DNA from: Eubacteriales bacterium
GTDB lineage: Bacteria; Bacillota; Clostridia; Oscillospirales; CAG-272
Assembly: GCA_045659245.1 (NCBI GenBank)
Contig: JAZOWN010000066.1
Location: 2,213 to 66,212, forward strand
Length of the DNA: 64,000 nt
Direction: 5' to 3'
Part shown: positions 5,700 through 63,540 of the stretch, piece after piece
How positions within the stretch are numbered: position 1 is the stretch's first letter
How the letters are laid out: every line of letters starts with the position of its first letter
Program-made: the position numbers and the translations under genes
The notes under the pieces: generated by a model
Databases searched by the model: none
What the model was told of the DNA's origin: nothing
What the model saw: the letters and a program-made list of their open reading frames with translations, nothing else

Positions 5700-5830
5700 A
5701 TCAACACCTCCGAAAAAAATCCGCGTGCATTACAGCGCACCGTACACACTACGTTTAATTATACCATATATTTGACAAAATTGGAAGAGCTTTTTATAAA
5801 TTTATATACGCACTTTTCTGAGCCCTTTCG

Positions 5831-5867
5831 GAAAAAGGAAAAGAGCCGTCCCTTTATGGGACGGCTC
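5831..5867 (-). terminator. rplS terminator
   Basis: Minus strand GAGCCGTCCC-ATAAA-GGGACGGCTC followed by TTTTCCTTTTT. Confidence 0.75.
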
Positions 5868-5874
5868 AAAGCAC

Positions 5875-6216
5875 TTAGATCTTTTCCTTAACCTTAGATG
5901 CCTTACCAACTCTGTCGCGCAAGTAGTAGAGCTTTGCTCTTCTTACCTTACCCTGACGGATGATGTCCACCTTCTCAACGTTGGGAGAGTGGATCGGGAA
6001 GGTCTTTTCAACGCCGCAGCCGTAAGAAACACGTCTTACAGTGAACGTCTCGGAGATTCCGCCGCCGTGCTTAGCGATAACGGTTCCCTCAAACATCTGA
6101 ATTCTCTCGCGAGAACCCTCCTTGATCTTGTTGTGAACACGGATAGTGTCACCAACGTTGATTACCGGAACCTCGGTCTTCAACTGCTCGTTTGTAAAAG
6201 CCTGAAGCATGTTCAT
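5875..6216 (-). CDS. rplS: 50S ribosomal protein L19
   Basis: 113 aa, [13 protein letters not shown]...[17 protein letters not shown], a clear L19 sequence. Confidence 0.95.
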
Positions 6217-6305
6217 CGTTCAGTCCTCCTAATAAATAATATCCAGACGTTCATGCAGAGCTTCGCAGCGGACCGCCTTTAAGCTGTGTTTTGCACACAG
6301 CGAGA
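6217..6305 (-). promoter_or_regulatory. structured rplS 5' leader (possible L19 autoregulatory leader)
   Basis: ~90-nt leader between the promoter and the RBS, with hairpin GCTGTGT-GCAAA-ACACAGC. Assignment to the Firmicute L19 leader family is by position only. Confidence 0.3.
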
Positions 6306-6308
6306 TAT

Positions 6309-6337
6309 ATTATATCATAACGTTTGCAATTTTGCAA
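6309..6337 (-). promoter_or_regulatory. rplS promoter
   Basis: Minus strand TTGCAA (6337-6332), 17-nt spacer, TATAAT (6314-6309). Confidence 0.6.
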
Positions 6338-6346
6338 TACCTTTTT

Positions 6347-19185: not shown

Positions 19186-19536
19186 ATGGCTAAAAACAGT
19201 TGCCAACTAAACGTAAGCAGTACGGACGGAGTGCTGACGGCGAGTCTTTGCGGAGAGCTCGACCATCACGGAGCCGTTGCCGTACGCACATTGATCGACG
19301 GCGAAATACAGCGCAAAAATCCGCAAAAAACGGTACTTGATCTTACCGATCTCGATTTCATGGACAGCTCGGGGCTCGGGCTTATCATGGGAAGATATGC
19401 GCTTATGCAGCGCCTCGGCGGGGAGTTTGCCGTAAAAAATCCCAACGAACGGGTCGTAAAAATATTCAAGCTTGCAGGCCTTGTGCGCATGGTCAAGGTG
19501 GAATGCGATAAAAAAAGAAAGGAGAAGGCACAATGA
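19186..19536 (+). CDS. spoIIAA: anti-sigma F factor antagonist (STAS domain)
   Basis: 116 aa with the phosphorylatable DFMDSSGLG motif. First gene of a three-gene operon with ATGA coupling. Confidence 0.9.
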   Translation: MAKNSCQLNVSSTDGVLTASLCGELDHHGAVAVRTLIDGEIQRKNPQKTVLDLTDLDFMDSSGLGLIMGRYALMQRLGGEFAVKNPNERVVKIFKLAGLVRMVKVECDKKRKEKAQ

Positions 19537-19991
19537 GGCAAAAATCAAACGGCTTTAACACGCCGACTATCAATATAATCAGCATAAAGCTTCCCTCCTT
19601 GTCCGTCAACGAATCGACAGCTCGAGCGGCGGTCGCGGCATTTTGCGCGCAGACAGATCCTCTTGCGACTGAGATCGCCGACATAAAGTGCGCTGTCTCC
19701 GAGGCTGTCACCAACTGTATCGTGCACGGCTACCGCAACAGCGTCGGCATAATCTACATAACTGTAAGGATTTGCGAGGGCGGAATCGTCCGCATAGATA
19801 TTCGCGACAAGGGCTGTGGGATTGAGGACGTAAAGCAGGCGAGACAGCCTCTGTATACGACCGATGCCGAGAACGAGCGAAGCGGCATGGGCTTTACCGT
19901 TATGGAAAGCTTTTGTGATAAAGTGAGGGTAAGTTCAAAATGTGGGAAAGGTACGACGGTAACACTGTACAAGCGCTTGCAGAGGAAATAG
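19533..19991 (+). CDS. spoIIAB: anti-sigma F factor (serine kinase)
   Basis: 152 aa with the VSEAVTNCIVHGY N-box and GMGF G-box of HATPase_c anti-sigma kinases. Confidence 0.9.
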   Translation: MRQKSNGFNTPTINIISIKLPSLSVNESTARAAVAAFCAQTDPLATEIADIKCAVSEAVTNCIVHGYRNSVGIIYITVRICEGGIVRIDIRDKGCGIEDVKQARQPLYTTDAENERSGMGFTVMESFCDKVRVSSKCGKGTTVTLYKRLQRK

Positions 19992-20764
19992 AAGATACGG
20001 ACAAGTCCTCAAAGGCTGTTTCGGATTTTTCGCGCAACAACGAATTACTGATTCTGGCGCGCGACGGCGACGGTGAGAGCGAGATAGCAATGAGGGCGAT
20101 AGGTGTGCTTGTTGAGCTAAACTACGGACTCGTAAAAAAAATCGCGCTCCGCTTTCGCGAGCGGGGCGTGGAGCTTGAGGACCTTATTCAGATCGGAACT
20201 ATCGGTATGATCAAGGCAATAAGAACCTTTGACTCGGAGCGCGGTACCTGCTTTTCGACCTATGCCGTTCCTCTTATATTCGGAGAAATTCGCCGCCACA
20301 TACGCGATGAGTGCCCTATCAAGGTTGGACGGGGAGTGCGGAAACTCGGTGCGGAGCTTTCGATGCACAGAAACAGAATTCTCGCCGAGGAGGGACGTGA
20401 GCCCCACGTTTTTGAGCTTGCCGAGCTTTGCGGTGTTGATCCCGGTGAGGCGGCAATGGCGCTTGATGCCCTACTCCCTCTTGCCTCCCTTTCGGACAGC
20501 GCCTTTGGCGACGAGGACGGCATTGAGCTTGGAGACACATTAGCGGACACGGAGGCTATTCTTGAGGGGGAGCGCTTTATAGACAAGCTTGCGCTTGCCG
20601 AGGCTATCGGGGGCATGCCCGCCACTTGGCAAAGGATCGTCACTCTGCGCTATTACCGCGGATTTACGCAACAGGCTGTCGCCTCAGTCCTTGGGCTTAC
20701 ACAGGTAAAGGTATCAAGAGAGGAAAAAAAGATCCTTGAGTATTTGAAAAAGGAAATGTCGTAA
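19940..20764 (+). CDS. sigF: RNA polymerase sporulation sigma factor F
   Basis: Sigma-70 regions 2-4 (DLIQIGTIGMIKAIRTFD, STYAVPLIFGEIRRHIRD). The only in-frame ATG lies 52 nt inside spoIIAB and no canonical start follows the spoIIAB stop. Confidence 0.85.
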   Translation: MWERYDGNTVQALAEEIEDTDKSSKAVSDFSRNNELLILARDGDGESEIAMRAIGVLVELNYGLVKKIALRFRERGVELEDLIQIGTIGMIKAIRTFDSERGTCFSTYAVPLIFGEIRRHIRDECPIKVGRGVRKLGAELSMHRNRILAEEGREPHVFELAELCGVDPGEAAMALDALLPLASLSDSAFGDEDGIELGDTLADTEAILEGERFIDKLALAEAIGGMPATWQRIVTLRYYRGFTQQAVASVLGLTQVKVSREEKKILEYLKKEMS

Positions 20765-28291: not shown

Positions 28292-28894
28292 ATGAATAAA
28301 GGTATTACCGTTATCGTTTGCATCTGTGCGCTTATTTTAGTCATCGGTCTTTTCCCCGTCCACGGTGAGGCGGAAATTTATGAAGACGTTTTGCGCTTGC
28401 ACGTCGTTGCCAACTCGGATAGTGAGGCTGACCAAGCGCTGAAGCTTGCCGTGCGCGACAAGATAATTTTAATGAGCTCACAGCTTGGCGAGGGGGCTCA
28501 TAGCATTGAGGACGCGGAAAGCATCATTTCCGCTAATATTGACGCCATACGCGAGTGTGCTCAAGCGGAGGTGTATGCGAATGGGTATGACTATCCCGCC
28601 GAGGTACGGCTCGTCCGTGAGGAATATCCTACCAAGACCTACGCCTCACTCTGCTTCCCGTCGGGAGAATATCTGTCCTTGCAGGTGCTAATCGGCGAGG
28701 CGGCGGGACAAAATTGGTGGTGCGTGCTGTTCCCACCTCTTTGCCTTAACGCGGCAAGCAGCACAAATGACGATGCATTTATTTCCGTAGGTCTTACCCC
28801 CGACCAGTATAAGATAATAACAAATACAAATGAGCCTGTTTACGAAGCGCGATTCAAGCTCCTTGAGGTAATTGAGGACGCAGTAAATAAATAA
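28292..28894 (+). CDS. spoIIR: stage II sporulation protein R
   Basis: 200 aa, signal/anchor followed by LRLHVVANSDSEADQALKLAVRD and NWWCVLFPPLC motifs. Confidence 0.9.
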   Translation: MNKGITVIVCICALILVIGLFPVHGEAEIYEDVLRLHVVANSDSEADQALKLAVRDKIILMSSQLGEGAHSIEDAESIISANIDAIRECAQAEVYANGYDYPAEVRLVREEYPTKTYASLCFPSGEYLSLQVLIGEAAGQNWWCVLFPPLCLNAASSTNDDAFISVGLTPDQYKIITNTNEPVYEARFKLLEVIEDAVNK

Positions 28895-29425: not shown

Positions 29426-30451
29426 TTATGAATTTCTTTCCTGCTTATATCTTTCGAGTCTGTTCGACCATGCGTTCTTTTCCGCCTCGGTATGCGTAAG
29501 GTCCTTCATTCCGTGGCTGTTGGCAAGAATATTACCGAAATATTCCGTCATTTTCTCCGCACCGTATACGTTCAGGTGTACGCCCCTATCGTACGTATCC
29601 GTAGAAAAATCAATGCCGATCTCATCAACCTCGTCAATGAAATTGTAGTAGGCGAGTCCCTTTTCGTCAGCATATTCCACTATCTGCGCGTCCCACTCGT
29701 CGTACCACCAATACGCAAACGTATTCGTGGGCGCTTTGATAAGAACAAGCTCCGCGCCGTTTTCCTCACACATCACTCGCATTCTCTCAAGGTAGTCCAT
29801 TGAGGTCTGCGGCAGCTCGTATTCGTCTATTTTAAGCGGTCTACCCTCGGTAGGCTCATTCGTCATTGGGACTACTCCCTTTTGCATCAAATATCCACTG
29901 TGCGACGCCGCCTCGGGCGCGCTGAACAGATATCTAAAATCGTCAGCCTCAAGCTCCGTTATGCGCGAATGGAAGCGAAGAAGCGGAAAAACGTAATCGA
30001 GAAGCTTTTCGTCCTCTGTCATTGATGCATTTATCGCATCAAGCTTGTGCTTTGACCAACGCATATCGTCTAGCGTCATACGGTTATACGACTCGCTTTG
30101 CGGCTCTCCGTATTTGAGCGCAAGCACGTTAAAAACAACCACCGACGGCTTTTCATATTCAAAGGTTTCCTCAAGCAGATAATACGAATGCCATATAAGC
30201 TGCTGCGCACTTCCTCGGATATACGAGGAGATTCCGTATTTTTCCCACAGCACAGCGGGAACGAAGCTCTCGTAAACCTCACAGTCACCGACAAAAATAA
30301 CGTCGTGGCCGCCCGCCTCCGCGTAGTACTCTCCAACGAGTCTGCCCTCGGGGTTATCTATATATTTCAGCTGGACAAGCGGTTGCAGGAGTGCAAGTAT
30401 CAAAATGATAGCAATCGCCGCTACTGCAATGCTTATAATTCTTTTCTTCAT
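29426..30451 (-). CDS. membrane-anchored SGNH/DltD-like acyltransferase/esterase
   Basis: N-terminal TM anchor, block-I-like VIFVGDCEV where GDS/GSSE is expected, and a C-terminal DRGVHLN. Sits downstream of the MBOAT gene. Confidence 0.5.
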   Translation of the reverse strand: MKKRIISIAVAAIAIILILALLQPLVQLKYIDNPEGRLVGEYYAEAGGHDVIFVGDCEVYESFVPAVLWEKYGISSYIRGSAQQLIWHSYYLLEETFEYEKPSVVVFNVLALKYGEPQSESYNRMTLDDMRWSKHKLDAINASMTEDEKLLDYVFPLLRFHSRITELEADDFRYLFSAPEAASHSGYLMQKGVVPMTNEPTEGRPLKIDEYELPQTSMDYLERMRVMCEENGAELVLIKAPTNTFAYWWYDEWDAQIVEYADEKGLAYYNFIDEVDEIGIDFSTDTYDRGVHLNVYGAEKMTEYFGNILANSHGMKDLTHTEAEKNAWSNRLERYKQERNS

Positions 30452-30474
30452 TTAATTAGTTATCCTTAAAGCAG

Positions 30475-32064
30475 TTAAAACTGATTGTAAATAAACTGGT
30501 TTGCGTCGTATCCGAAGCCATACGTTCCGAGCATAACCGTCACAAGCAAAAGAGATGCGCAAATTGCCGCAGATGCGACGGGGCGCTCGTAAAGCCACTC
30601 GCGTACGCTTCCCTTTGCCTCGGCACGGCTTACGAAGAAGACGAGCACAACGGAAAGAAGCACGACACAAATATCCGCCGGAGTAAGTCCAAGCTTAAAT
30701 ATTCCGCCACTAAACAGTTCGCAGAAGCCCGAGAACGTAAACATACTTCCCCACATAAGGAAGGTAAGCCCTACGTTTCGGTAGCAGTCGAGAGACCTTA
30801 TAAGTCCCATTAGCAAAAACGTTCTTACGGACATAAAATATCCGTAAAACTTGGACTCTGTAAGACGCGGAAATTTAGCATGGAACTTGCCGTAAATCGG
30901 CTCGAGATTTTCGGAAACCACTATGATAAGGAAATTAAGCATTCCCCATACTATAAAATTCCAACCCGCGCCGTGCCAAACGCCCGTAACGAACCACGTA
31001 ACGGCGCTTGCTATATATGCTACCGTCTTGCTTGCCGCGACTCTGCCGAATTTTCCCGCAAGTCGCTTGTTAAGCTTCATCATAGGCTTGGTTACCGCCA
31101 AGGGGGTGAATATGTAGTCCTTAAACCACGTACCCATGGTGATATGCCAACGGCGCCAATACTCTTTGGTTGATTTCGACGAGAACGGTCTGTCGAAGTT
31201 TTCGGGAAGCTTTATTCCCATGGCCTCGGCAATACCTATCGTAATATCAATTCCGCCCGTAAAGTCTGCGTATATCTGTATCGAATACAGAATTATAAGC
31301 AAGCCGACGTAAGCCCCCTTGTAATTCTCGGGGGCATCGAGCATCGTGTTCATCGCAACGAGAACTCTGTCCGCGATGACAAGCTTTTTAAAATATCCCC
31401 AAAGTATTCTTTGAAGTCCAAAGGTAAACGTCTTACCGTTAAATCTATGGGGTGCGGTAAGCTGTGCTCCTATCTCCGAAAAACGGGAGATAGGTCCTTG
31501 GACAAGCTGCGGGAAGAACGACACGAAAAGCGCAAGCTTTGCAATATTCTTTTCGGGCTGTACCTTCGCGCGGTAAACGTCGATAAGGTATCCCATCGTC
31601 TGGAAGGTATAAAACGATATACCCATGGGAAGCAGAAGATTGGGGATCGTAAATCCCTCTCCGCCAAAAAGTCCTATGATCGAGTTTACGTTATTGACGG
31701 CGAACGCCGTGTATTTAAGCACGGCAAGCACGCCGAAGTTAAGCACGAGTCCGATTATAAGTATACGAAGTCTGTCCTTTTTCTTTCGCGCTCTGTACGC
31801 CTTGCGCGTTTCCTTATCAAGGCTTTCCTTGTTTTCCTCGACGTAAATATCCTCTTTCGTTTTGACTCGGTGCATAAGCACGGAGATAAAGTACGCCGAC
31901 ACCGTCGTAAACAGTATAAATACGAGATATTCAAGTCCCGCGAATGCGTAAAAAACGTAGCTTCCGACAAGAAGCGTTATCCATTGCCATTTTCCGCGAG
32001 TGAGAAAATACGCTAAAAACAGCACGCACAAAAATGCGATAAAGGAATAAGAGGTAAAAAGCAT
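30475..32064 (-). CDS. MBOAT-family O-acyltransferase (DltB/AlgI-like)
   Basis: 529 aa multi-TM protein with the conserved EYWRRWHITMGTWFKDYIF histidine block. Confidence 0.85.
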   Translation of the reverse strand: MLFTSYSFIAFLCVLFLAYFLTRGKWQWITLLVGSYVFYAFAGLEYLVFILFTTVSAYFISVLMHRVKTKEDIYVEENKESLDKETRKAYRARKKKDRLRILIIGLVLNFGVLAVLKYTAFAVNNVNSIIGLFGGEGFTIPNLLLPMGISFYTFQTMGYLIDVYRAKVQPEKNIAKLALFVSFFPQLVQGPISRFSEIGAQLTAPHRFNGKTFTFGLQRILWGYFKKLVIADRVLVAMNTMLDAPENYKGAYVGLLIILYSIQIYADFTGGIDITIGIAEAMGIKLPENFDRPFSSKSTKEYWRRWHITMGTWFKDYIFTPLAVTKPMMKLNKRLAGKFGRVAASKTVAYIASAVTWFVTGVWHGAGWNFIVWGMLNFLIIVVSENLEPIYGKFHAKFPRLTESKFYGYFMSVRTFLLMGLIRSLDCYRNVGLTFLMWGSMFTFSGFCELFSGGIFKLGLTPADICVVLLSVVLVFFVSRAEAKGSVREWLYERPVASAAICASLLLVTVMLGTYGFGYDANQFIYNQF

Positions 32065-32072
32065 ACTCCCTT

Positions 32073-32300
32073 TTATTCCTCGTCAAGCTTGGTTATAAGC
32101 GCCCAAAGCGCCTCTGCCGAGTTGAAGTTTTCGGGGATTATCTCCTCTGCGGGGACGGTCACACCGAACTCCGTATCAATTGCCGCAACAAGAGATACAA
32201 TATCAAGAGAATCAAGTATTCCGTCGTCAATAAGCGACTCCTCGGACGCAAAATCAACGTCGGGATGCAGGTCGGTAAGTATTTCAATTACCTTTTCCAT
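32073..32300 (-). CDS. acyl/D-alanyl carrier protein (DltC-like)
   Basis: 75 aa with a GILDSLDIV phosphopantetheine-attachment motif. Confidence 0.8.
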   Translation of the reverse strand: MEKVIEILTDLHPDVDFASEESLIDDGILDSLDIVSLVAAIDTEFGVTVPAEEIIPENFNSAEALWALITKLDEE

Positions 32301-32332
32301 TTCGTTTTTCCTTTCAAAATGCCAAATATATG

Positions 32333-33832
32333 TCAGTTTTCTTCTGCCATTGACAGAAGCTGTGTTCTGTTTATCTTGCCGTTATCTGTAAGCGGAATTG
32401 CATCAAGCTTACGCGTAAGTGACGGAAGCATGTATCTCGGGAGCATCTCTGCGAGAGCCTTGCTTATCTGTGTCTCCTCAAGCTCGCCTACGTAAAAGAG
32501 CGCGATCGCCTTTTTTTCCTTTGCGTAAACGCACACAGCGCGCGCAACGCCGTCATTTTTCATAGCCGCGCTTTCTATCTCGCCAAGCTCTATTCGGTGC
32601 CCCATGTGCTTTATTTGATTATCCTTGCGGCAAACGAACACAAGCTCGCCGTACTCGTTATAGCGCCCTATGTCGCCCGTTCGGTATATTATCTCCCTAT
32701 ACGCTCGTGCCAAGGGATTTACGACAAACGCCTCGTCCGTTCTCTCAGGATTGTTGTAATATCCCATCGTAACGCACGTTCCTCTAATACAGATCTCTCC
32801 CTCGTCAGCACGCCTATTTTCAGCGTCAAGAAGAATTATCTCGGTATTGTCAAACGGTCTGCCGACGGGGATCGGCTCGTCCTTTGAAAGCTCTCGCAGA
32901 GCCTGCCAATAGCAGGACATACCCGTCGCCTCGGTAGGCCCGTAGAGGTTAAAAAATCTCGCATTTGGCAATGCAGCGCGCCAAAGATCGTACTGCTTGC
33001 GCGGAAAGACCTCGCTGCCAAAGGCTACCGTGGTAAGATATTTGGGGGTATGTGCTTCAAGCGCACCAAGCGAGGAGATCTGCACAAGCGCGGAGACCAC
33101 CCAACAAACGGTATTGATCTTATACGTATCAAGGTACTCAACGAGCTTAACGGGAAACGAGAATAACATTCTCGGCACGAAATAAGTCGTAGCTCCCATT
33201 TTAAGCGTGGGCATAAGCTCCTTGAGAGGCGCGTCAAAATAAAGAGGTGTTTGATTTGCAAAGACCGTATTCTCGTCAAAGCCGAGCGCATCGGTCAAGG
33301 ACTCCGTGTAATCAATTACGGAACGGTGGCATGCAACGACTCCTTTGGGCATTCCCGTAGAGCCTGAGGTGAACACAACGTAAATAGGATCGGTGTCACA
33401 CTGACGGCAGCGAATATCCGCAAGAGCTCTTACGTCTATGGGCGTATCGCAAACGTCGTCGTAAAGCAGCGTATATTCAAGCCCCAGCGCCTCTGCCGCC
33501 TTGAAATTGCGCTTGTCCGCGATTATTGCGCGAGGCTTTAGGTTTTCTATGATCGAGTCAATTCTCGCGCGGGGCATCTTTTCGTCAAGGCAGGCATAAA
33601 AGCAGCCTGCGTATATAACGCCCCAAAAGGCGGTAACCGTCCTCGGATGCTTGTCCATTAGAATAACGACACTCTCACCGTAAAGTCCGAGAGCGGCAAG
33701 CTTTGAGCCTATTGCGCGCGACTCGGAATATACCTCGCCAAAGGTCATATCCTCCTTGCCAGTAGAAAACGCAAGCTTGTCGGGAACTCGCACTGCCGTA
33801 TTCTCGAGATATTCAAGTATGTTTTTTTGCAT
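32333..33832 (-). CDS. AMP-dependent amino-acid--carrier-protein ligase (DltA-like adenylation enzyme)
   Basis: 499 aa with the adenylation motifs VVFTSGSTGMPKGV, YGPTE, YRTGD and GKINR. Confidence 0.8.
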   Translation of the reverse strand: MQKNILEYLENTAVRVPDKLAFSTGKEDMTFGEVYSESRAIGSKLAALGLYGESVVILMDKHPRTVTAFWGVIYAGCFYACLDEKMPRARIDSIIENLKPRAIIADKRNFKAAEALGLEYTLLYDDVCDTPIDVRALADIRCRQCDTDPIYVVFTSGSTGMPKGVVACHRSVIDYTESLTDALGFDENTVFANQTPLYFDAPLKELMPTLKMGATTYFVPRMLFSFPVKLVEYLDTYKINTVCWVVSALVQISSLGALEAHTPKYLTTVAFGSEVFPRKQYDLWRAALPNARFFNLYGPTEATGMSCYWQALRELSKDEPIPVGRPFDNTEIILLDAENRRADEGEICIRGTCVTMGYYNNPERTDEAFVVNPLARAYREIIYRTGDIGRYNEYGELVFVCRKDNQIKHMGHRIELGEIESAAMKNDGVARAVCVYAKEKKAIALFYVGELEETQISKALAEMLPRYMLPSLTRKLDAIPLTDNGKINRTQLLSMAEEN

Positions 33833-33841
33833 AAGATCTCC

Positions 33842-34849
33842 TTAATAGAGGCTCTTCGTTGCCGTCTTGGGATAATCCTTGTCATCGAAGGCATAAAATC
33901 CCGTGCCACTCTTGTTCGGCTTATAATTATCGATTTCCCCACGAGTTCTTAACCAACCGTTAGCCGTTCCATCAGAAAAAGTTCCTCCAAGACGTGTAGC
34001 ATCGTAAAAATACCAGCTTGGATTACTTGAGATTCCTATGTTCACCATGCACCAAAAATGCGTATTGATACCATCAATCGTGCATTTGGAATTATCTTGC
34101 TGAATATCCTCATGCTCTATTCCAAGTCTTACAAAAAACGCTTTTGAGAGAGAAAAATACGAATAACAATCGCCCTTTTCATTCTGGAGCGTTCGCGTTG
34201 CTTCCTCTATCCAATCATTCCGCCAATTTTCGCGGTTATTCGTTACTCCCGGGGTGTTAGATTGTGCTTGTACCTGTGTGCCTTTGTTAAGGGAACTATT
34301 CACGTATGCGTAAACCGCTTCTACCTTTTCCTTGGTCGTAGGAAGCTTGTCTATTCCAAGCTCCGCTATTTTTTGGTCTATAATCGCCATAAGCGTCGAA
34401 TAGGAATATTCCTTTTTCGTTACGTGAACCGTAACGGTCTTTTGAGTTTTCTTCCCCGACGAATCGGTCGCGGAAAAAGTCAACGAGTAAATTCCCTCCT
34501 TGTCGAGGTTAACGTTCGACTCAATTTGGGGTGTAAGCGTTCCGTCTTCATCGTCGATAGCCTGAACGTACTTCCTCCAGCTTATGTTCTCGCCCGCGTA
34601 AACGTATATGGTATCTCCTCCGCCGACGAGCGAAATAACGGGAGAGCTGTTGGAGCTTCCGCCGACCCCGCCAGAGCCACCCTTACCGGAAGAGCCCGAT
34701 GCCGACGCAACGTCAACGATTACTGTAACAGTCGTAGCAACAAGAGCGAGAGCCAAGGCTACAACCGTAATTTTTACTGCTAAAATAACTGTTTTTATAA
34801 GCTTTGAGCGTTGCTTTGCGAACGCTTTAAGATCATCTCTGTATGACAA
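33842..34849 (-). CDS. membrane-anchored Ig-like (DUF5011-type) plus transglutaminase-like cysteine protease domain protein
   Basis: TM anchor, Gly/Ser linker, an Ig-like segment (LTPQIESNVNLDKEGIYSLTFSATDSSGK) and a C/H/D core (GDCYSY...HFWCMV...YDAT). The tracked ATG (34897) lies inside the promoter, so the start is placed at TTG 34849 after AAGGGGA. Confidence 0.55.
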   Translation of the reverse strand: MSYRDDLKAFAKQRSKLIKTVILAVKITVVALALALVATTVTVIVDVASASGSSGKGGSGGVGGSSNSSPVISLVGGGDTIYVYAGENISWRKYVQAIDDEDGTLTPQIESNVNLDKEGIYSLTFSATDSSGKKTQKTVTVHVTKKEYSYSTLMAIIDQKIAELGIDKLPTTKEKVEAVYAYVNSSLNKGTQVQAQSNTPGVTNNRENWRNDWIEEATRTLQNEKGDCYSYFSLSKAFFVRLGIEHEDIQQDNSKCTIDGINTHFWCMVNIGISSNPSWYFYDATRLGGTFSDGTANGWLRTRGEIDNYKPNKSGTGFYAFDDKDYPKTATKSLY

Positions 34850-34885
34850 AATACAATCCCCTTCAAGAAAAAGATATACACAATT

Positions 34886-34914
34886 ATTATACACCAAGAC
34901 ACTGTTTTTGTCAA
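34886..34914 (-). promoter_or_regulatory. promoter of the six-gene surface-acylation operon
   Basis: Minus strand TTGACA (34914-34909), 17-nt spacer, TATAAT (34891-34886). Confidence 0.7.
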
Positions 34915-34949: not shown

Positions 34950-35004
34950 CTAAAAAAGCCAAAAAACGCTTATGCTACCATTTTAAAATAGCAAAAGCGT
35001 TTTT
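34950..35004 (-). terminator. native spoVT terminator
   Basis: 15-bp stem AAAACGCTTATGCTA / TAGCAAAAGCGTTTT (34963-35003, one mismatch), followed on the minus strand by TTTTTTGGCTTTTTT. Confidence 0.75.
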
Positions 35005-35038
35005 CCTTTTTCTCTGAATTTTCTCTAAAAAAATATGC

Positions 35039-35509
35039 CTAAGCCTCGGTGTGTCTGCCGAGAAAGCCTGCGGCTGTTTGAATGAGCTTGGCTTCCGCAT
35101 CAACCCCAAATACATTATCCCTTTGAGGTTTATCAGCTTCGCTGTCGGATACTGATGCAACACAGCCGATAACGTCTCCCTCGCTTATAATGGGCATAGC
35201 ACATCTTACAAAATGATTTTTGGAGTCGGCAATAACGGGAAGCTTGTCCGTACCCTCTCGCCAACTGTAAAAACCCCTGCCCTCAATAATTTTTTCGATC
35301 TCCTCGGATAAGTTCTTATCGGTATATTCCTTTTTGGAAACACCCGCGCTTGCAATGACCGCATCTCTGTCACTGATTATGACGGAAAGGTTGCAGGTCT
35401 TGTAAAGCGTTTCTGCGTACTTTGATGCGAAGCTTGACAACTCGCCTATGGGAGAGTATTTTTTGAATATGACCTCTCCCTCTCTGTCGGTATATATTTC
35501 AAGCGGGTC
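35039..35509 (-). pseudogene. spoVT: spoVT 3' fragment (about codon 32 to stop) detached from its 5' end by insertion
   Basis: 156 aa DPLEIYTDREGEVIFKKYSPIGELSSFASKYAETLY...PIISEGDVIGCVA...IQTAAGFLGRHTEA. These align by eye with B. subtilis SpoVT from D32 to the C-terminus. The AbrB-type first ~31 codons are missing here. Confidence 0.8.
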
Positions 35510-37270
35510 AACCACGCTGACAACATTGACGCGAAAAACCTTGTCGTGCTGCTTATTCGCACGCTGGACTACCTTGATTTCATAGAAATCTTCGGTTTTT
35601 TCGATATTTTCCGCGTCCTGATCAAAATTTACGGGTATCTCGCTTTCTGTATCGCCAATATTTGCGATCGTTCCGGTTCGGAGTAGCTCGTCCACCTCGG
35701 CTCTTAGCTTGACCTCGATATGATCCTCAAAAACAACCATATGGCTGATAATCAGGTTAATGTCGTTTTTGTCAAGATGATCCTTTTCGAGAATCTCGTT
35801 GAAAACGTCGATGACGGTCTTGGCTACACGGTTGACACGAATCATCGTATTGGTTGTGTCAGATGCCAGCTCAAGCTGATGATGCAACCCCTCAATGTGA
35901 TTCTCGGACTTTTCGATCTCAACGTCGTAAGCCTCTACCGTAACCGAATTTTCCCCGGATTTTGCCGCCGCCTTTGCGCGTTGCTTGACGAGTGAACGCA
36001 AAACCTCGCGCTCTTCTTCAATCTCTTCCATCAGCGCAGCAATTGCATTCTTTCCGGAATCCATGTGCTTCGGTTCGTTCTTGATGACCTCCTCCAGTAT
36101 CTTAATCATAGAGGCAGAGTTATCACGGACCTTTCGGATATACTCCTTTAGCACCTCATCAAGAAAATCAACGTCAACCTTATGGGTTGTGCATCCGCTC
36201 TTCAAGCCGCGTCTGTGATAGTTACCACAGATATAGGAACGGCTCAGGTTCTCTCGGTTTCTGGCAAACATCGGTGCGCCGCAATCACCGCAAACAAGAA
36301 ATCCAGAATAGTTATTTTCGTTTTTCTTGATGCCGCGGTAGTGCGCCTTTGCCCTTAGCTTCAACTGCTCCTGCACCGTCGTAAACGTGCGATAATCCAC
36401 AATGGGCGTGTGGAAATTCTCGAACACAATCTGCTCACTTTCGTGAACAGGAACCATCGGTCCATTGATGGTCTTGCGCTGATACTTTCTCGAGCGAAGC
36501 GTTCCGATATAAAAATCGTTTTTCAGAATCTCTCCCACCGTCTGGATGCTCCAAACATCCTTGACCACTGCGTGATACTCATCTCCCATCGCCTCCTTTC
36601 GAGCCTTTTCTCGCATTCTGGCTGTGGGGATTTTTTGCGCGGTTAGGTGTTCGGCAATCTTCTTGTAGCCCCAACCGTTTATGTAGAGGCGGAAAATCTC
36701 GCGAACCACCTCGGCGGCGGGCTCGTCAACCTCGTAGATCATCTTCTTGGTGTTCTTCATTACGTAGCCATAAGGTACGGAACAAATCCACTCTCCGCGC
36801 TGCTGACGGCTCGCAATAACTGCCGAGACCTTTTCACTGGCATCGGTTACGGGCATTTCGTTGAACATGAAGAACATCTTCGTCTTCATAAGATCGCCCT
36901 TCTTCATAGAGTTCGTGTCAAGCGAATCTCCAATCGAAATAATGCGAAGCCCAAGCTCCATAAAATCCTCAAACTCGGACATGCCCTTGCTGAGTCTTCT
37001 TGAAAAACGGCTCAGATCCTTTACGATTAAAATATCATACTCACCGTTTATCAGCTTTGGTCTCAGCTCTCCGTGATAACACGGACGCTTTTCAAAGCTG
37101 TATCCCGACTTATCGCGGTCTTCAAAGTAATCAACCGTACTCGTGGGAAAGTGAAGCTTGCAATACTCGTCAATGATTGCCTTCTGGTTTTCAATACTCG
37201 TATTCGTTCCGTTTCGCTCTTCATCGACCGAAATACGGGTATAAGCGGCAATTTTGTATCTTTCCACCAT
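35039..37270 (-). CDS. large serine recombinase (resolvase + recombinase + zinc-ribbon + DUF4368-like regions), reading in frame into the spoVT 3' fragment
   Basis: N-terminus AAYTRISVDEE...DRDKSGYSFEKRP...VKDLSRFSR (catalytic Ser/Arg pattern), Cys-rich zinc ribbon (CGDCGAP...CGNYHRRG), coiled coil, and DINLIISHMVVFEDHIEVKL. No stop codon before the junction at about 35510. Confidence 0.85.
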   Translation of the reverse strand: MVERYKIAAYTRISVDEERNGTNTSIENQKAIIDEYCKLHFPTSTVDYFEDRDKSGYSFEKRPCYHGELRPKLINGEYDILIVKDLSRFSRRLSKGMSEFEDFMELGLRIISIGDSLDTNSMKKGDLMKTKMFFMFNEMPVTDASEKVSAVIASRQQRGEWICSVPYGYVMKNTKKMIYEVDEPAAEVVREIFRLYINGWGYKKIAEHLTAQKIPTARMREKARKEAMGDEYHAVVKDVWSIQTVGEILKNDFYIGTLRSRKYQRKTINGPMVPVHESEQIVFENFHTPIVDYRTFTTVQEQLKLRAKAHYRGIKKNENNYSGFLVCGDCGAPMFARNRENLSRSYICGNYHRRGLKSGCTTHKVDVDFLDEVLKEYIRKVRDNSASMIKILEEVIKNEPKHMDSGKNAIAALMEEIEEEREVLRSLVKQRAKAAAKSGENSVTVEAYDVEIEKSENHIEGLHHQLELASDTTNTMIRVNRVAKTVIDVFNEILEKDHLDKNDINLIISHMVVFEDHIEVKLRAEVDELLRTGTIANIGDTESEIPVNFDQDAENIEKTEDFYEIKVVQRANKQHDKVFRVNVVSVVDPLEIYTDREGEVIFKKYSPIGELSSFASKYAETLYKTCNLSVIISDRDAVIASAGVSKKEYTDKNLSEEIEKIIEGRGFYSWREGTDKLPVIADSKNHFVRCAMPIISEGDVIGCVASVSDSEADKPQRDNVFGVDAEAKLIQTAAGFLGRHTEA

Positions 37271-37300: not shown

Positions 37301-37329
37301 ATTGTAACATATTTTCATTTCGAAGTCAA
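37301..37329 (-). promoter_or_regulatory. recombinase promoter
   Basis: Minus strand TTGACT (37329-37324), 17-nt spacer, TACAAT (37306-37301). The palindrome ACAATATTGT at 37349-37358 lies just upstream. Confidence 0.6.
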
Positions 37330-37358: not shown

Positions 37359-37595
37359 CTATCCATCCGCCACTGCCTCCTGTCTTGCTTGAAGCAGATG
37401 ATTGTGAGAAAGAAGATTTTGGGTAAGAGTAGCCAGATCGCCGTTGCCGGATTCAAAAACCACAACCTTGTAGTCTTTGACTTTATATTGGCTGAAGATT
37501 GGTTTCAAGCTTTCGCGAAGCGCATCGTCACGTGACTCACTGCGAGTGAGCCATATAGACACATATTTCTTTTCATCATAAACGTTCATTTCCAT
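37359..37595 (-). CDS. small hypothetical protein upstream of the recombinase (possible directionality factor)
   Basis: 78 aa from the ATG after AAGGGGTG (MEMNVYDEKKYVSIWLTRSE...). No recognised domain. The functional role is suggested by position only. Confidence 0.4.
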   Translation of the reverse strand: MEMNVYDEKKYVSIWLTRSESRDDALRESLKPIFSQYKVKDYKVVVFESGNGDLATLTQNLLSHNHLLQARQEAVADG

Positions 37596-37692
37596 ATAAC
37601 TCACCCCTTTCACTGAATTATTGACAATGATATGATTTTGTATTCAGATAATACTTATAGTAAAAACATTGGTTTTCGTTTATTCAAGCATT

Positions 37693-37721
37693 ATTATATC
37701 ATATAATATATTTTTTGTCAT
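37693..37721 (-). promoter_or_regulatory. promoter candidate for the 78-aa gene / recombinase unit
   Basis: Minus strand ATGACA (37721-37716), 17-nt spacer, TATAAT (37698-37693), in a very AT-rich context. Confidence 0.35.
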
Positions 37722-38532: not shown

Positions 38533-39129
38533 TCAATACATCTTTATACAACTGACAAGCACACCCTGTATATCACACTCTTTCACTATTATATCTTTCA
38601 TGGTTTTATTTTCAGGGTGGAGTATTATTTTACTTCCGTCTTTGAAAAATCGTTTTAGCGTTGTTTCTCCGTCTACAAGAGCCACGATTATATCTCCATC
38701 ATTGGCGTAGTTTTGTTTCTTGACTACAATAAGATCACCTTTTCTTATTCCTATATCTATCATACTGTCACCGTATGTGCGAAGCATAAACATCTCACCC
38801 TCGCCAAACAGCTCAGTTGGGAAGGCGTATGTTTCCTCTATCTCCTCAACGCCTATATTTGGCGCTCCGCAAGCGACAGAACCTACGAGGGGTATCATAG
38901 TAGTCCCACCGTGCTTTAGATTTGACGGTATTTCTATATTGCCGAGATTGGTACGTGTAATGCGTCCTGCGTTCTCAAGGGCGTTTACATATCGGAATAC
39001 GGAGCTTAACGTCGTCATTCCCGTTTCGTGCATTATCTGACGGTAGCTTGGAGACTTTCCTTTTTCCATTTGATACGTTGTTATATAACGCTCCACTTTT
39101 TCAAGCATATCCTGGTTTAATGTTCTCAT
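38533..39129 (-). CDS. LexA-like S24 peptidase repressor
   Basis: 198 aa from the ATG after GGAGAG. Winged HTH (SPSYRQIMHETGMTTLSSVFRYVNALE), VACGAP cleavage-site region, GDSM serine and VVKK lysine. Confidence 0.8.
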   Translation of the reverse strand: MRTLNQDMLEKVERYITTYQMEKGKSPSYRQIMHETGMTTLSSVFRYVNALENAGRITRTNLGNIEIPSNLKHGGTTMIPLVGSVACGAPNIGVEEIEETYAFPTELFGEGEMFMLRTYGDSMIDIGIRKGDLIVVKKQNYANDGDIIVALVDGETTLKRFFKDGSKIILHPENKTMKDIIVKECDIQGVLVSCIKMY

Positions 39130-39147
39130 AAAATGCTCTCCTTTCAC

Positions 39148-59607: not shown

Positions 59608-59814
59608 TTACACCGCCTTGATCTCTATGTCACATCCAAGGGCATAGATTACTTTCATCAAGGTATCCAACTGGGGCATTGCTTTCTTACTTTCTATGCG
59701 CGCGATCACTGATTGCGTAAGATGAGAAGCATCAGCGAGTTCCTTTTGCGTAAGACCTAATTCTTTACGTTTTTCAATTAAAGTATCAATGATTCTCGAA
59801 CACTGTTCAGGCAC
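59608..59814 (-). CDS. XRE-family HTH protein
   Basis: 68 aa: LGLTQKELADASHLTQSVIARIE. Confidence 0.75.
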   Translation of the reverse strand: MPEQCSRIIDTLIEKRKELGLTQKELADASHLTQSVIARIESKKAMPQLDTLMKVIYALGCDIEIKAV

Positions 59815-60106
59815 CTATAGTACCTCCAACCGGAATGCTTTGCTCGTAAAGAGTTTCGGGGGCTATATCAATATCACCGTCATTCCAAACAGGAACACCG
59901 TAATCGATATACACACCTCTGAAAACATCCATATCCGAAAGAGGTGCAAAAGCAGGCATTGACAAAAGAGGTGTAAAATCAAACAATCTTGCTTCACCGG
60001 TATTAAAGCGAAGCCATAATTTGTGATTTTCAAGAGGACGAACACCATTCACTTTAAGCATTGGCGCTACCTCTCCAGCGTAAGCGATACCATCTTTAAT
60101 ATACAT
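59807..60106 (-). CDS. DUF2442 domain protein
   Basis: 99 aa: VRPLENHKLWLRFNTGEARLFDFTPLL...DIAPETLY pattern. Confidence 0.65.
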   Translation of the reverse strand: MYIKDGIAYAGEVAPMLKVNGVRPLENHKLWLRFNTGEARLFDFTPLLSMPAFAPLSDMDVFRGVYIDYGVPVWNDGDIDIAPETLYEQSIPVGGTIGA

Positions 60107-60130
60107 ACTGTTATACTCCTTTCGAAATCA

Positions 60131-60397
60131 TTACTGTAGCGGCTCTATCTTTCCGAATGCAACACCTTGGATTGCTTTATTCCACGCTGCATACAGTTCA
60201 TCCTCATGAATAAGAGCCCATGCTTGAACAAGTCTCAACTGCTTAAGAGGAAGACTTCCCACGATCAACTCCCCGTCGATTCCAACCGAGGCTTCATATT
60301 CTGCAAAATAAACATGGAAATGCGGTTTATAGTGCTGACTATTATCATTATAAATCATCTTGATAACGATATTATAAAATCTACATAATTCGGGCAT
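60131..60397 (-). CDS. DUF4160 domain protein
   Basis: 88 aa: FYNIVIKMIYNDNSQHYKPHFHVYF signature. Confidence 0.65.
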   Translation of the reverse strand: MPELCRFYNIVIKMIYNDNSQHYKPHFHVYFAEYEASVGIDGELIVGSLPLKQLRLVQAWALIHEDELYAAWNKAIQGVAFGKIEPLQ

Positions 60398-61139: not shown

Positions 61140-61937
61140 CTACTGTAATATTAGACCTTCAGCTACTTTTATTATTTCATTAATACTAGAAAACTCGCCC
61201 ATTATTCTATACTCATATTGATTGTCTTGCCATACTATAGTGTAGACGCTCGTATTACTTAAATCCTTTGTAATTATTGCATCATAATTATTTATACTGG
61301 TTTTATAAATTTCTTGAGATTCTGAATTAGTCCAATGTAATTCTGAAGTTATAACATTTTGAGAAAGATAAAAAATGCAATTCTCTTCATAAAGAAAACT
61401 AACCACATAATATGTTTCATCTTCAAAATCAACTACCATATCATATTCTCCTGGTAAATATGATAAAGTTGCCTTCTTCGTTATAGTTGTAGGATAAACA
61501 ATACTTTCTGCTGTAGCCTCGTTATTTTCAGAATTTTTTGTTTCTGTCATATTTGCTTCTGTTGTATCCATACTGGGTTCTATAAACTCGTATTTAGGTT
61601 GACTACCGTCATTATCACCAAATCCAATTGCAATATAATCTTCATACCACTCCACCAAAAATGCTTTTATTGCATTCCTTATCTTGGGGATAGACACACA
61701 TGCGGTAAGAGCTATAACAACAGATATAATACAAGCTACAGCAATCCATTTTGTAGCAATTGTTTTTCTTTTGCCGCCTGAAATATATCCTTTTGCAATT
61801 CTATTCATTCTTTTTTGCTGTGAAGGAGTGATCTCAAATCCTGTACCGTCAACATTCAAAAACTCGTCTGCCATTTGATCGCAACTTTTTTCAGCAGCAG
61901 CATACATAAGCAGTTCAAAATTATTGTATGTACTCAC
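61140..61937 (-). CDS. single-pass membrane protein, putative anti-sigma factor (DUF4367-like)
   Basis: 265 aa, overlaps the sigma gene stop. Cytoplasmic N-terminus, TM helix WIAVACIISVVIALTAC and an extracytoplasmic C-terminus. Confidence 0.45.
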   Translation of the reverse strand: MSTYNNFELLMYAAAEKSCDQMADEFLNVDGTGFEITPSQQKRMNRIAKGYISGGKRKTIATKWIAVACIISVVIALTACVSIPKIRNAIKAFLVEWYEDYIAIGFGDNDGSQPKYEFIEPSMDTTEANMTETKNSENNEATAESIVYPTTITKKATLSYLPGEYDMVVDFEDETYYVVSFLYEENCIFYLSQNVITSELHWTNSESQEIYKTSINNYDAIITKDLSNTSVYTIVWQDNQYEYRIMGEFSSINEIIKVAEGLILQ

Positions 61938-62503
61938 TTTACATTCCTCCCTGCCTTCAGCTTCTCTTTTAGGATCTTCTTCGCTCTGAAAATACGACCG
62001 TTAACCGTATTTGTAACAACCCCAAGCATTCTTGCAATGTCAATATTTTTCATATGCATGTTGTATTTTAAAAGAATTGGAATTTTATACATATCATCCA
62101 ATTCATTAATCGCTTTGGCTAGAGCATCTTTATTTTCTTCGGTTACTGAAATATCAAATAACGAACTTTCTTCTGTCGTATTTTCATCACAGATACACTC
62201 TATATCCTCACCGGAGGAAAACATTTCACTTTTACGCTGATTTCTTCTATAAATGTTAATTGCCTTACTTCGTACACATACAAAAATCAAACTAATTGTT
62301 TTCTTGCTTTTATAATCAACAAAATTTTCCGCATGCTCACAGATATATTTCATTACTTCCATAGCTGCATCTTCGGCATCTTGCTTATTATTTAAGATAC
62401 TGTAAGCGACACTCTCCATTTTAGGAAAGTATCTTTGAAATATTTCGTTTACCGCATATCGCTCATCATCCGTTTCGATAATTTGCATTAATTCCAGTAT
62501 CAT
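61934..62503 (-). CDS. ECF-type sigma-70 family RNA polymerase sigma factor
   Basis: 189 aa with region 2 (SILNNKQDAEDAAMEVM) and a region 4 HTH (MKNIDIARMLGVVTNTVNGRIFRAKKIL). Confidence 0.7.
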   Translation of the reverse strand: MILELMQIIETDDERYAVNEIFQRYFPKMESVAYSILNNKQDAEDAAMEVMKYICEHAENFVDYKSKKTISLIFVCVRSKAINIYRRNQRKSEMFSSGEDIECICDENTTEESSLFDISVTEENKDALAKAINELDDMYKIPILLKYNMHMKNIDIARMLGVVTNTVNGRIFRAKKILKEKLKAGRNVK

Positions 62504-62514
62504 ACGAACACCTA

Positions 62515-62877
62515 TCAGTCAGGAAGATTTACTTCGAGCTCTATATGCGCTTCAATTCGTCTCAACTGCTCATCTGATGCTTTCTCTAATTTTCGAGATA
62601 TGCTATTATATATAACATTGGGATCGTGAGCTGTAACATAATCATATAACAACTCATCTGCTGAAATATTTAACGCATTTATAATTTCAATCAATGTTTT
62701 AAAACTTGGATATTTGTATCCCGCTTCTATTTGACTTATAAAATTTCTTTCGACACCGACACAGTTTGCTAATTTTTGCACAGATATTCCCTTTTCTTTT
62801 CTTATAGCTTTAATCCGTATTCCCAGTGCCTTCGGAGTGATATTATTTGCGCGAAGCTCTTTATTTCTTTTTGGCAT
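62515..62877 (-). CDS. XRE-family HTH regulator
   Basis: 120 aa: IKAIRKEKGISVQKLANCVGVERNFISQIEAG. Confidence 0.75.
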   Translation of the reverse strand: MPKRNKELRANNITPKALGIRIKAIRKEKGISVQKLANCVGVERNFISQIEAGYKYPSFKTLIEIINALNISADELLYDYVTAHDPNVIYNSISRKLEKASDEQLRRIEAHIELEVNLPD

Positions 62878-63139: not shown

Positions 63140-63174
63140 AATGTTAAAATCACGATAGAAAGGAGGTGACGATT

Positions 63175-63540
63175 TTGAGTGCAGGAGACCGCCGTGAACG
63201 TTTATTAAGAATTTTAACTTTAAAAGGACATGCAACCATATCCGAACTCGCCAACGAATTGGAAGTATCCGAAAGAACAATTATGCGCGATATAGAAGTT
63301 ATTAGTTTTGAAAAACCTATTTTTACTGTTATGGGCAAAAATGGGGGAGTTTACATAGATAATTACTATTTATTAAATCAACTACATCTTAAAGCACACG
63401 AGATTGACTTGTTATATAAGATTATTTTCGATATTGAAAATTACTCTTACTGCAGCCTTAATGAGTCGGAACTGAATCTGCTCAAAGAAATCGTCACCAT
63501 ATATTCTAAAAAAACATATAGAAAGGAAAAAACAAAATGA
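63175..63540 (+). CDS. HTH_11 (YafY N-terminal-like) regulator without a WYL domain
   Basis: RLLRILTLKGHATISELANELEVSERTIMRDIEVI...GKNGGVYI. Start placed at TTG 63175, 8 nt after AGGAGG (the tracked GTG lies inside the RBS). The stop overlaps the next ATG (ATGA). Confidence 0.6.
   Translation: MSAGDRRERLLRILTLKGHATISELANELEVSERTIMRDIEVISFEKPIFTVMGKNGGVYIDNYYLLNQLHLKAHEIDLLYKIIFDIENYSYCSLNESELNLLKEIVTIYSKKTYRKEKTK

Follow-up and report, generated by a model that had tools for sequence, protein, structure and literature searches.

The window analysed here is a stretch of 64,000 nt from a bacterium of the Oscillospirales (Eubacteriales bacterium, contig JAZOWN010000066.1), and positions below refer to it unless another locus is named. 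On its minus strand, an open reading frame (ORF) of 743 aa joins a large serine recombinase in frame to the greater part of SpoVT, the forespore regulator of Bacillus subtilis. The spoVT gene is cut after codon 31, and the serine recombinase at the junction is encoded by an element. This ORF is very probably the right-hand junction (attR) of a mobile element that was inserted into spoVT by a large serine recombinase with the attachment site of the element (attP) inside its own gene. The features at the junction are as follows.

35039 to 37270, minus strand: attR junction ORF, 743 aa, an in-frame fusion of recombinase residues 1–587 to SpoVT residues 32–187.
35510 to 37270, minus strand: large serine recombinase of the element without its native tail of about 26 aa, recognised by Pfam and PHROG, with Resolvase, Recombinase and Zn ribbon domains, a coiled-coil region and a C-terminal extension.
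35039 to 35509, minus strand: 3' part of the host spoVT, codons 32–187 and the stop, encoding SpoVT_C (GAF-like) in full, preceded by the two final strands of the AbrB-type domain.
About 34950 to 35012, minus strand: native intrinsic terminator of spoVT, a hairpin followed by a U-run (−27.9 kcal/mol, z = −4.1).
35519 to 35530, minus strand: attP-derived half-site arm GTCAATGTTGTC (12 nt), the inverted repeat of the other attP arm.
35508 to 35509, minus strand: putative crossover dinucleotide GA at the element/host boundary, the first two bases of D588 of the ORF (D32 of SpoVT) and the symmetry centre of the attP of contig L103, described below.

Within the 743-aa ORF, Pfam placed Resolvase at residues 7–161, Recombinase at 185–305, Zn_ribbon_recom at 322–379 and SpoVT_C at 610–742 (E 1e-33), with each of the three recombinase domains (PF00239, PF07508 and PF13408) above its cut-off. 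The catalytic YxRxS motif is present as YTRIS at residues 10–14, and the recombinase part matches the integrase family PHROG 95 (E 1e-83). Residues 586–741 correspond to positions 29–179 of the 180 positions in TIGR02851 (stage V sporulation protein T; E 5e-41). The score of 140.6 stays below the trusted cut-off of 235.9 for a full-length SpoVT solely because the first 28 profile positions are absent, and the Pfam search of the ORF gave no match to the AbrB-type N-terminal domain (PF04014). With B. subtilis SpoVT as the query, tblastn matched its residues 32–177 to 35509–35045 of the window at 42% identity (E 3e-31), and no N-terminal piece of spoVT was found by tblastn over all 64 kb. The first-pass annotation, made from the letters of the window, had read the 3' part of the ORF as SpoVT from about D32 to its C-terminus with the native terminator in place, the first ~31 AbrB-type codons missing and recombinase sequence upstream. 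Pfam, TIGR02851 and tblastn bear this out, the hairpin follows the stop codon, and the boundary can be placed exact to the base.

The boundary codon, D588 in the fusion and D32 in SpoVT, lies at 35509–35507, where DNA homology with intact spoVT begins; alignments of the window with the intact 187-aa spoVT genes of related organisms start no earlier than nucleotide 86. Precise excision in silico rebuilds an intact spoVT ORF with the GA core within the Asp32 codon. From end to end, the reconstructed protein (residues 1–31 plus window residues 588–743) shares 88–91% identity with uninterrupted SpoVT proteins of 187 aa found elsewhere.

The same four-domain fusion was present in all of the 120 best homologues (60–100% identity, 734–790 aa), which come from many independent assemblies; related loci are numbered with an L and proteins with a P hereafter. 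The two halves differ in how far they have diverged. In P0006–P0009, the recombinase is 98% identical to that of the window and the SpoVT part just 57–65%, whereas the respective values are 74% and 97% in P0011, 62% and 93% in P0018, and 58% and 90% in P0034. Synonymous divergence (dS) rises abruptly at the junction in every pair tested, being far lower in the recombinase than in the spoVT part (0.09 versus 1.74 for L062/L064, 0.17 versus 0.64 for L016/L017, and 0.50 versus saturation for the window and L003), and therefore the recombinases are younger than the split of their hosts. The uncoupled identities of the halves and the discordant dS values mark horizontal mobility. In L003 and L004, the loci carrying P0002 (recombinase 98% identical), the host flank with the Ig-like protein, dltA, dltC, dltB and others is syntenic with the window at about 72% DNA identity, and the elements themselves have only the recombinase and 360 bp upstream of it in common with that of the window, the interior beyond being different.

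The other junction (attL) was found in related genomes. With the spoVT 5' piece of L096/L097, described below, as the query, the 120 best matches to SpoVT residues 1–31 were all ORFs of 34–70 aa, of which 102 carry a foreign tail of more than 6 aa past the break; the other 18 continue as spoVT or end within 6 residues. Of the 102 foreign tails, 80 fit a simple search pattern built on the motif D-P-x-L-x-T-L-T-x-x-(E/D)-(K/R)-F-x-x-A-(I/M)-x-x-(L/V)-x-x-R, and 83 attL tails of at least 20 aa could be aligned. The attL product, encoded by more than 80 protein clusters, is SpoVT 1–31 followed by a conserved foreign tail of about 26 aa. One contig of a Ruminococcus sp. assembly (L100) holds a complete element of about 10.3 kb, with the attL ORF, AbiH, an MmeI-type restriction enzyme, a helix-turn-helix (HTH) protein, DUF3987, HTH_17, a Mob_Pre relaxase, a homologue of the small ORF described below as orf84, and the family recombinase running to the contig end. 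No spoVT 5' piece was found within 10 kb upstream of the recombinase in 80 genome loci, and those elements must therefore all be larger than 10 kb.

Two groups of attL loci deserve separate description. In L096 and L097, the spoVT 5' piece reads MKATGIVRRIDDLGRVVIPKEIRRTMRIREG before foreign sequence begins; this is a decayed attL scar (2904–3011 in L096, the same in L097) with SpoVT 1–31 and a frameshifted tail, in which the A of the GA core is deleted (1 nt). In L096, a fully intact spoVT (4166–4729) with its own promoter follows 1.2 kb downstream of the scar. The spoVT piece of the scar shares only 83% identity with this functional copy, while the flanks match the scar-free L094/L095 at 96% identity, and a 116-aa gene is common to L096/L097 and L098/L099. 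An old insertion in the spoVT gene of L096/L097 was apparently followed by its repair or replacement. In L111–L116, a MatE/polysaccharide-synthesis gene lies within 245 bp of the attL ORF (farther in L113), sugar-transport genes follow, and neither a recombinase nor SpoVT_C occurs within 10 kb. The hosts are cellulolytic ruminococci, because they carry cohesin/dockerin genes, and the junction belongs either to a very large element or to a fossil in a non-sporulating lineage.

An attP pattern composed of the conserved left arm, GA and the right arm was run on viral and metagenome contigs, and matched a single metagenome contig, L103, and no viral contig. The family recombinase of L103, 52% identical to that of the window, ends in ...NVISNGDPTQITLT and a stop codon (C-terminus ...DKVYDVNVISNG DP TQITLT) with perfect dyad geometry. 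Its attP DNA, GTCAATGTTATC-AGTAACGGCG|ACCCGACACA-GATAACGTTGAC, consists of two 12-bp inverted arms and a 20-bp spacer with GA at the centre. The attP of the family sits inside the recombinase gene, about 26 codons ahead of the native stop, with GA as part of an Asp codon. The tail is also contiguous with the enzyme in P0365 (42% identity; ending ...SEGDPSQTTLEAMDGFVFSLHSMVKRCAIS) and P0364 (44% identity; ending ...VVREGEGFVTTLSLIERYCYAIVLLSSRIPDYIQQ), which align over nearly their whole length and come from a library of representatives at 50% identity. The T-L-T of the tail is the translated right arm, and the remaining tail varies in sequence while keeping an amphipathic pattern, which suggests that it may have a role as protein.

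All of the attR sites (88 found, 87 listed) were compared, and they conserve the left arm, whose reverse complement appears at attL. The host target (attB) in spoVT reads ...CGC GAG GGC GAC CCN... (Gly31-Asp32-Pro33), in the form ...CGCGAGGGC GA CCCGCTTGAAATA..., and attP has the form GTCAATGTTGTCAGCGTGGTT GA .... The sequence GGCGACCC is common to attP, all eight attB and one of the three distinct attL (L102), and the other attL cores are off by one or two bases (GGTGACAC in L100/L101; the decayed L096/L097 scar without the A). The geometry and the GA are common to attP (L103), attB (eight intact spoVT genes), attL (L100/L102/L096) and 88 attR, sites which come from different lineages, and the crossover probably takes place at this GA. 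Recombination there would swap the 3' ends of the recombinase gene and spoVT with both sides in frame: attR would encode recombinase 1–587 followed by SpoVT 32–187, and attL SpoVT 1–31 followed by the recombinase's own tail. With attP inside the recombinase ORF, the fusion is therefore obligatory, in frame and reciprocal. Because the in-frame fusion follows from the site geometry, it is by itself no evidence of selection for the fusion.

L103 (1–12455) also encodes a second large serine recombinase (5584–7161), a rolling-circle-type Rep protein (REP_ORF2-G2P, 1420–2415) and an RNA ligase; its orf84 homologue lies on the opposite strand, and its tail is shortened by a TGA directly after T-L-T. 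P0215 (172 aa, from a 26-kb NCBI contig) is an attR relic whose ORF starts with MALQNFCSSVNVICGG and continues with intact SpoVT 32–187; the recombinase is lost and the VNVI encoded by the half-site is retained.

Could the ORF instead be a stand-alone, vertically inherited recombinase-GAF gene that recruited SpoVT_C as a sensor, without any insertion into spoVT? More than 100 lineages, down to 47% identity, have the complete fusion in frame, which could resemble selection for the architecture. However, identity and dS are uncoupled across the junction, the SpoVT part follows the host, with intact and fused alleles nearly identical in one species group (P0122 versus P0034), reciprocal attL ORFs and native-tail recombinases both exist, and the spoVT terminator and the downstream host synteny are kept. 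We consider such a gene highly improbable, and would give even less credit to an assembly chimera joining a recombinase contig to a spoVT contig: contigs of relatives do often end near the junction (L100, L091), but the junction is base-identical in many independent assemblies (ENA, NCBI, JGI, Logan) and in cultured isolates. Both explanations were rejected as already contradicted by this evidence. The 743-aa ORF is an integration junction, attR, and the proposal of the first-pass annotation that spoVT is split by an integrated element has held against its stand-alone alternative, which the uncoupled halves, the reciprocal attL pieces and the attP form contradict.

The part of the element visible in the window and the features ahead of its recombinase are listed here.

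35510 to 64000, minus strand: visible integrated element, at least 28.5 kb and extending past the window, with a G+C content of 0.33–0.45 versus 0.45–0.51 in the host flank.
37301 to 37329, minus strand: sigma-A-like promoter TTGACT-17-TACAAT (TG-extended), 30 nt upstream of the recombinase ATG (consensus match only).
37359 to 37613, minus strand: orf84, a small protein without a known fold, which travels with the recombinase.
37693 to 37721, minus strand: promoter-like site ATGACA-17-TATAAT upstream of orf84 (consensus match only).
38533 to 39147, minus strand: LexA/CI-type S24 peptidase repressor of the element.

Further genes of the window element encode HTH regulators, a WYL protein, a DUF3854 primase-like protein, a RecD2 helicase, a YqaJ exonuclease, PcfJ, DUF7666, PcfK, a VWA/CobT-like protein, an AAA_5 ATPase, a DUF4160/DUF2442 pair, and a sigma factor with a DUF4367 protein. 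The S24 repressor suggests SOS-type induction of the element. No virion structural or packaging genes were found in the visible 28.5 kb, and PADLOC, run on ten proteins of the window element, did not find a complete defence system. Two segments in the very AT-rich far end of the window (G+C 0.33–0.36), 59807–60397 and 61140–62877 (both minus strand), hold the DUF4160/DUF2442 gene pair, read as toxin-antitoxin-like, together with an XRE regulator, an extracytoplasmic-function (ECF)-type sigma factor and the DUF4367 protein as a possible anti-sigma factor, so that a sigma factor is borne by an element inside a sporulation gene.

What the elements have in common is only the recombinase and the adjacent ORF of about 80 aa; the cargo is highly variable and often consists of defence systems. 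Homologues of orf84 adjoin the recombinase in 66 other loci (29–89% identity), and both L100, the element of about 10 kb, and L103, the contig with the attP form, have one too. The orf84 product matched no Pfam or PHROG family, and its AlphaFold model, predicted without an alignment, was unusable for a fold search (predicted local distance difference test score 52); the protein is a candidate directionality factor or accessory protein. A tblastx comparison of the interior of the window element with all loci revealed essentially no cargo in common. Across 23 related loci, the commonest neighbours were type I/III restriction and helicase domains, SWI2/SNF2, DUF4391, Wadjet JetA, Fic and two relaxases, and on the attL side L102 carries type I restriction genes. 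In L106–L109 (11.4–20 kb), a complete type I-E CRISPR-Cas operon (Cas3, Cse1, Cse2, Cas7, Cas5, Cas6e, Cas1, Cas2) starts 1.2 kb past the attL ORF, and L105 has the same left flank and first element gene with unrelated genes in the CRISPR-Cas position; CRISPR-Cas may be carried as cargo there. Most of the elements appear to be islands for defence or mobilization, unlike classical prophages, and the description that fits the family best is that of one recombination unit used in common by such islands and perhaps by some prophages.

Among species-representative genomes, one per GTDB species, we counted 506 related loci, the best 80 of which are all fusions; the family is therefore very widespread and the window insertion no isolated case. 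The hosts belong to Oscillospiraceae, Ruminococcaceae, Acutalibacteraceae and other Clostridia, mostly from gut and rumen, and include four cultured Ruminococcus carriers (R. flavefaciens 007c and ATCC 19208, Ruminococcus sp. YRD2003, and Marseille-P6503). An alignment-based scan of IMG/VR yielded only six loci, one full fusion (L088) and five that stop at the contig end, and a scan of the same collection with a single protein gave no match. Just two related virome scaffolds were present in the phage collection, MT836658.1 and MT839487.1, the latter ending inside the recombinase at about residue 580. The plasmid collection contained only matches of at most 32% identity, and exact-protein look-ups of the fusion and of the ORF at 63166–63540 returned no record. 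MT836658.1 (L104), labelled 'Bacteriophage sp.' from a human faecal virome, is a host chromosome fragment with an orf84 homologue, a 700-aa recombinase-SpoVT_C fusion (attR) and host genes. Two metagenome-assembled genomes contain two attR each, identical at the junction in RGIG3903 (L009 and L035) and differing there in RGIG6172 (L012 and L033), so that either spoVT is present twice or the bin mixes strains. Several contigs, such as those of L100 and L091, stop within a few codons of the junction, as assemblers do when integrated and empty or excised forms coexist in a sample, which may be an indirect sign of such coexistence. Together, these comparisons establish the anatomy of the junction, its mosaic origin and its distribution.

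The host flank bears on the consequence of the insertion. An intact ORF at 19940–20764 (plus strand) matches the SigF/SigG family of sporulation sigma factors, the two small ORFs just upstream of it (19186–19536 and 19533–19991) may be spoIIAA and spoIIAB, judging by their position, and spoIIR is intact at 28292–28894 (plus strand). As the SigF-like and spoIIR ORFs are intact, the host lineage has at least part of the sporulation programme. Directly downstream of spoVT (29426–34897, minus strand) are an Ig-like surface protein and the dlt (D-alanylation) operon; the usual spoVT neighbours as in L001 (a polysaccharide-synthesis/MurJ-type gene, mazG, an S4-domain gene and hbs) are not at the window locus. 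The insertion lies inside the coding sequence of a sporulation gene, at a position which, in the AbrB-type fold, separates the helix from the third strand. Because the cut falls in the middle of this DNA-binding domain, neither chimera can be SpoVT, and SpoVT function would be lost while the element is resident. In Clostridioides difficile, a spoVT mutant produced zero heat-resistant spores, and SpoVT is the key ancillary forespore regulator (PMC3789822). By homology, spoVT should be a forespore gene in the window host as well.

Precise excision would restore spoVT exactly. The fused recombinase would excise the element, presumably together with a directionality factor for which orf84 is the candidate. 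We infer that the fusion protein is active as the excising enzyme because the fused gene is the only recombinase copy in the integrated state and yet the lineage has moved between hosts. As to the trigger, we lean towards conditional excision, on transfer or, given the S24 repressor, on SOS induction, over excision programmed in the forespore: sigma-A-like promoters precede the recombinase and orf84, and the element carries an SOS-type repressor. For a developmental trigger speak the logic of the target gene, the two recombinase isoforms, and the conserved tail behind the spoVT promoter at attL.

If excision were developmental, the element would leave the forespore chromosome and rebuild spoVT when the gene is due. 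The excised circle would stay in the spore because the forespore does not divide, and it would re-integrate at germination through the native-tail recombinase or else be lost from the lineage. We hold this to be unlikely. Precise excision would restore the reading frame, the SigF-like ORF, spoIIAA/spoIIAB (by position only) and the intact spoIIR in the flank imply that spoVT should matter, and at attL the conserved recombinase tail comes under the promoter and start codon of spoVT, so that its product would be timed to the forespore. The two states encode two recombinase isoforms, a ready-made directionality switch, and SPbeta, skin and gin are precedents in other sporulation genes (PMC4191935, PMC5595907). 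No sporulation-type promoter was identified, with sigma-F/sigma-G consensus patterns that missed even the native spoVT promoters and so say nothing about timing. Against it speak the sigma-A-like promoters of the recombinase and orf84 and an S24 repressor typical of SOS induction, and several hosts are ruminococci, for which, to our knowledge, sporulation is not known. Somewhat less probable again is the fuller version, in which this would be the first intervening element of a forespore, and hence germ-line, gene, excising in the non-dividing forespore, kept as a circle in the spore, re-integrating at germination and taking its direction from the tail swap. In such a tail-swap model, the integrated state would produce the recombinase-SpoVT_C fusion and, from the spoVT promoter in the forespore, a SpoVT(1–31)-tail peptide, and the excised state the integrating recombinase with its native tail. 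A fixed relic, in which the element cannot excise, spoVT is dead, the host is already asporogenous and the fusion ORF is pseudogene-like, appears a little less plausible than either. Decayed examples do occur in relatives, namely the attL scar with the 1-nt core deletion (L096/L097), an attR with a truncated recombinase (P0215), and attL ORFs without a recombinase or SpoVT_C within 10 kb (L105–L116). The window recombinase, however, is a complete ORF with its catalytic motif and all domains, the 3' part of spoVT is uninterrupted to its own stop and terminator, recombinases 97–98% identical in hosts with only 57–65% identity in the SpoVT part attest to recent movement, and the SigF-like and spoIIR ORFs in the flank are intact.

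Several points weigh against the account that we prefer, an element integrated into spoVT and excised by its fused recombinase. The activity of the fusion protein and the timing of excision are presumptive, and a second spoVT copy may exist elsewhere in this genome. The GA crossover is deduced from symmetry and shared sequence, and the base before GA in the window lineage differs from the usual attB (GTT GA versus GGC GA). The left junction of the window element itself, on a contig of 66.7 kb, was not found, and attL, attP and attB all come from other lineages. The attR core of L100 lies within the last 255 nt of its contig, outside the locus retrieved, and L103, the single attP-form contig found, is not circle-closed and carries a second recombinase.

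The spoVT element resembles skin (sigK, SpoIVCA), SPbeta (spsM, SprA/SprB), vfbin (spoVFB), vrin (spoVR) and gin (gerE) in its insertion in a sporulation gene and the large serine recombinase at the element end (PMC4191935, PMC5595907, PMC6957869). As with those elements, whose cargo spans prophage and non-phage types, the gene would be rebuilt by precise excision. According to Abe 2014 (PMC4191935), it is mother-cell genes that intervening elements restore, and excision is limited to the terminally differentiated mother cell, in agreement with the first-pass annotation; the paper on the gin element in gerE likewise places excision in the mother cell. In contrast to the described skin/SPbeta-type elements, all in mother-cell genes, the target here is spoVT, a forespore regulator in the genome that is inherited; attP within the recombinase ORF and reciprocal in-frame chimeras also set it apart.

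In myxophage Mx8 (IntP/IntX) and with the SSV-type archaeal integrases, integration similarly is reported to alter or split the integrase gene so that the free and integrated enzymes differ (for the attP within the Mx8 integrase gene, Tojo 1996 and Magrini 1999, both cited in PMC6070905; for the archaeal integrases, the review PMC8371274). Theirs, however, are tyrosine recombinases aimed at tRNA genes; in the serine recombinase described here, the exchange is confined to the last ~26 codons and adds a whole folded domain of the host (SpoVT_C, 156 aa) to the enzyme. We know of an attP inside its own recombinase gene only for such tyrosine integrases (Mx8, SSV), and for no serine recombinase. 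Active lysogeny of the Listeria phage phi10403S in comK is another case of a mobile element in a regulatory gene, and the spoVT element could likewise be a reversible on/off switch of a host programme. The recombinase type and the host programme differ. Tn5397 (TndX) and Tn4451 (TnpX) have clostridial large serine recombinases, a GA crossover dinucleotide and integrative mobilizable or conjugative cargo, and the spoVT family shares with them a Clostridia large serine recombinase, the central GA and such cargo. TndX-like enzymes are multi-targeting and usually contain DUF4368 (PMC10083194), unlike the spoVT family, which is without DUF4368 and strictly site-specific for one codon of one gene. 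In this respect, it is like the site-specific clusters of large serine recombinases of Durrant et al. 2022 (PMC10083194), with many diverged recombinases on one conserved intragenic site and a unit shared among unrelated elements; spoVT is not mentioned as a target in the text and supplements examined of that paper. In open-access text, we found no published link of spoVT to an intervening element, prophage, attB, integrase or serine recombinase.

The insertion in spoVT breaks the rule in the literature that intervening elements occur only in mother-cell genes. Because its attP lies within its own ORF, the recombinase takes one form when the element is free and another when it is integrated, which is a natural way to control direction, and the family provides many diverged pairs of recombinase and att site for one highly conserved 40-bp site. 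The spoVT site is also a hotspot for defence cargo such as CRISPR-Cas, AbiH, Wadjet and restriction systems. The roughly 500 related loci raise the possibility that an occupied spoVT is a common, reversible reason for the patchiness of sporulation among gut and rumen Clostridia, for which the ability to sporulate matters in transmission and culturing. If excision were indeed developmental, the sporulation of many gut and rumen Oscillospirales would hinge on a mobile element that carries a defence island.

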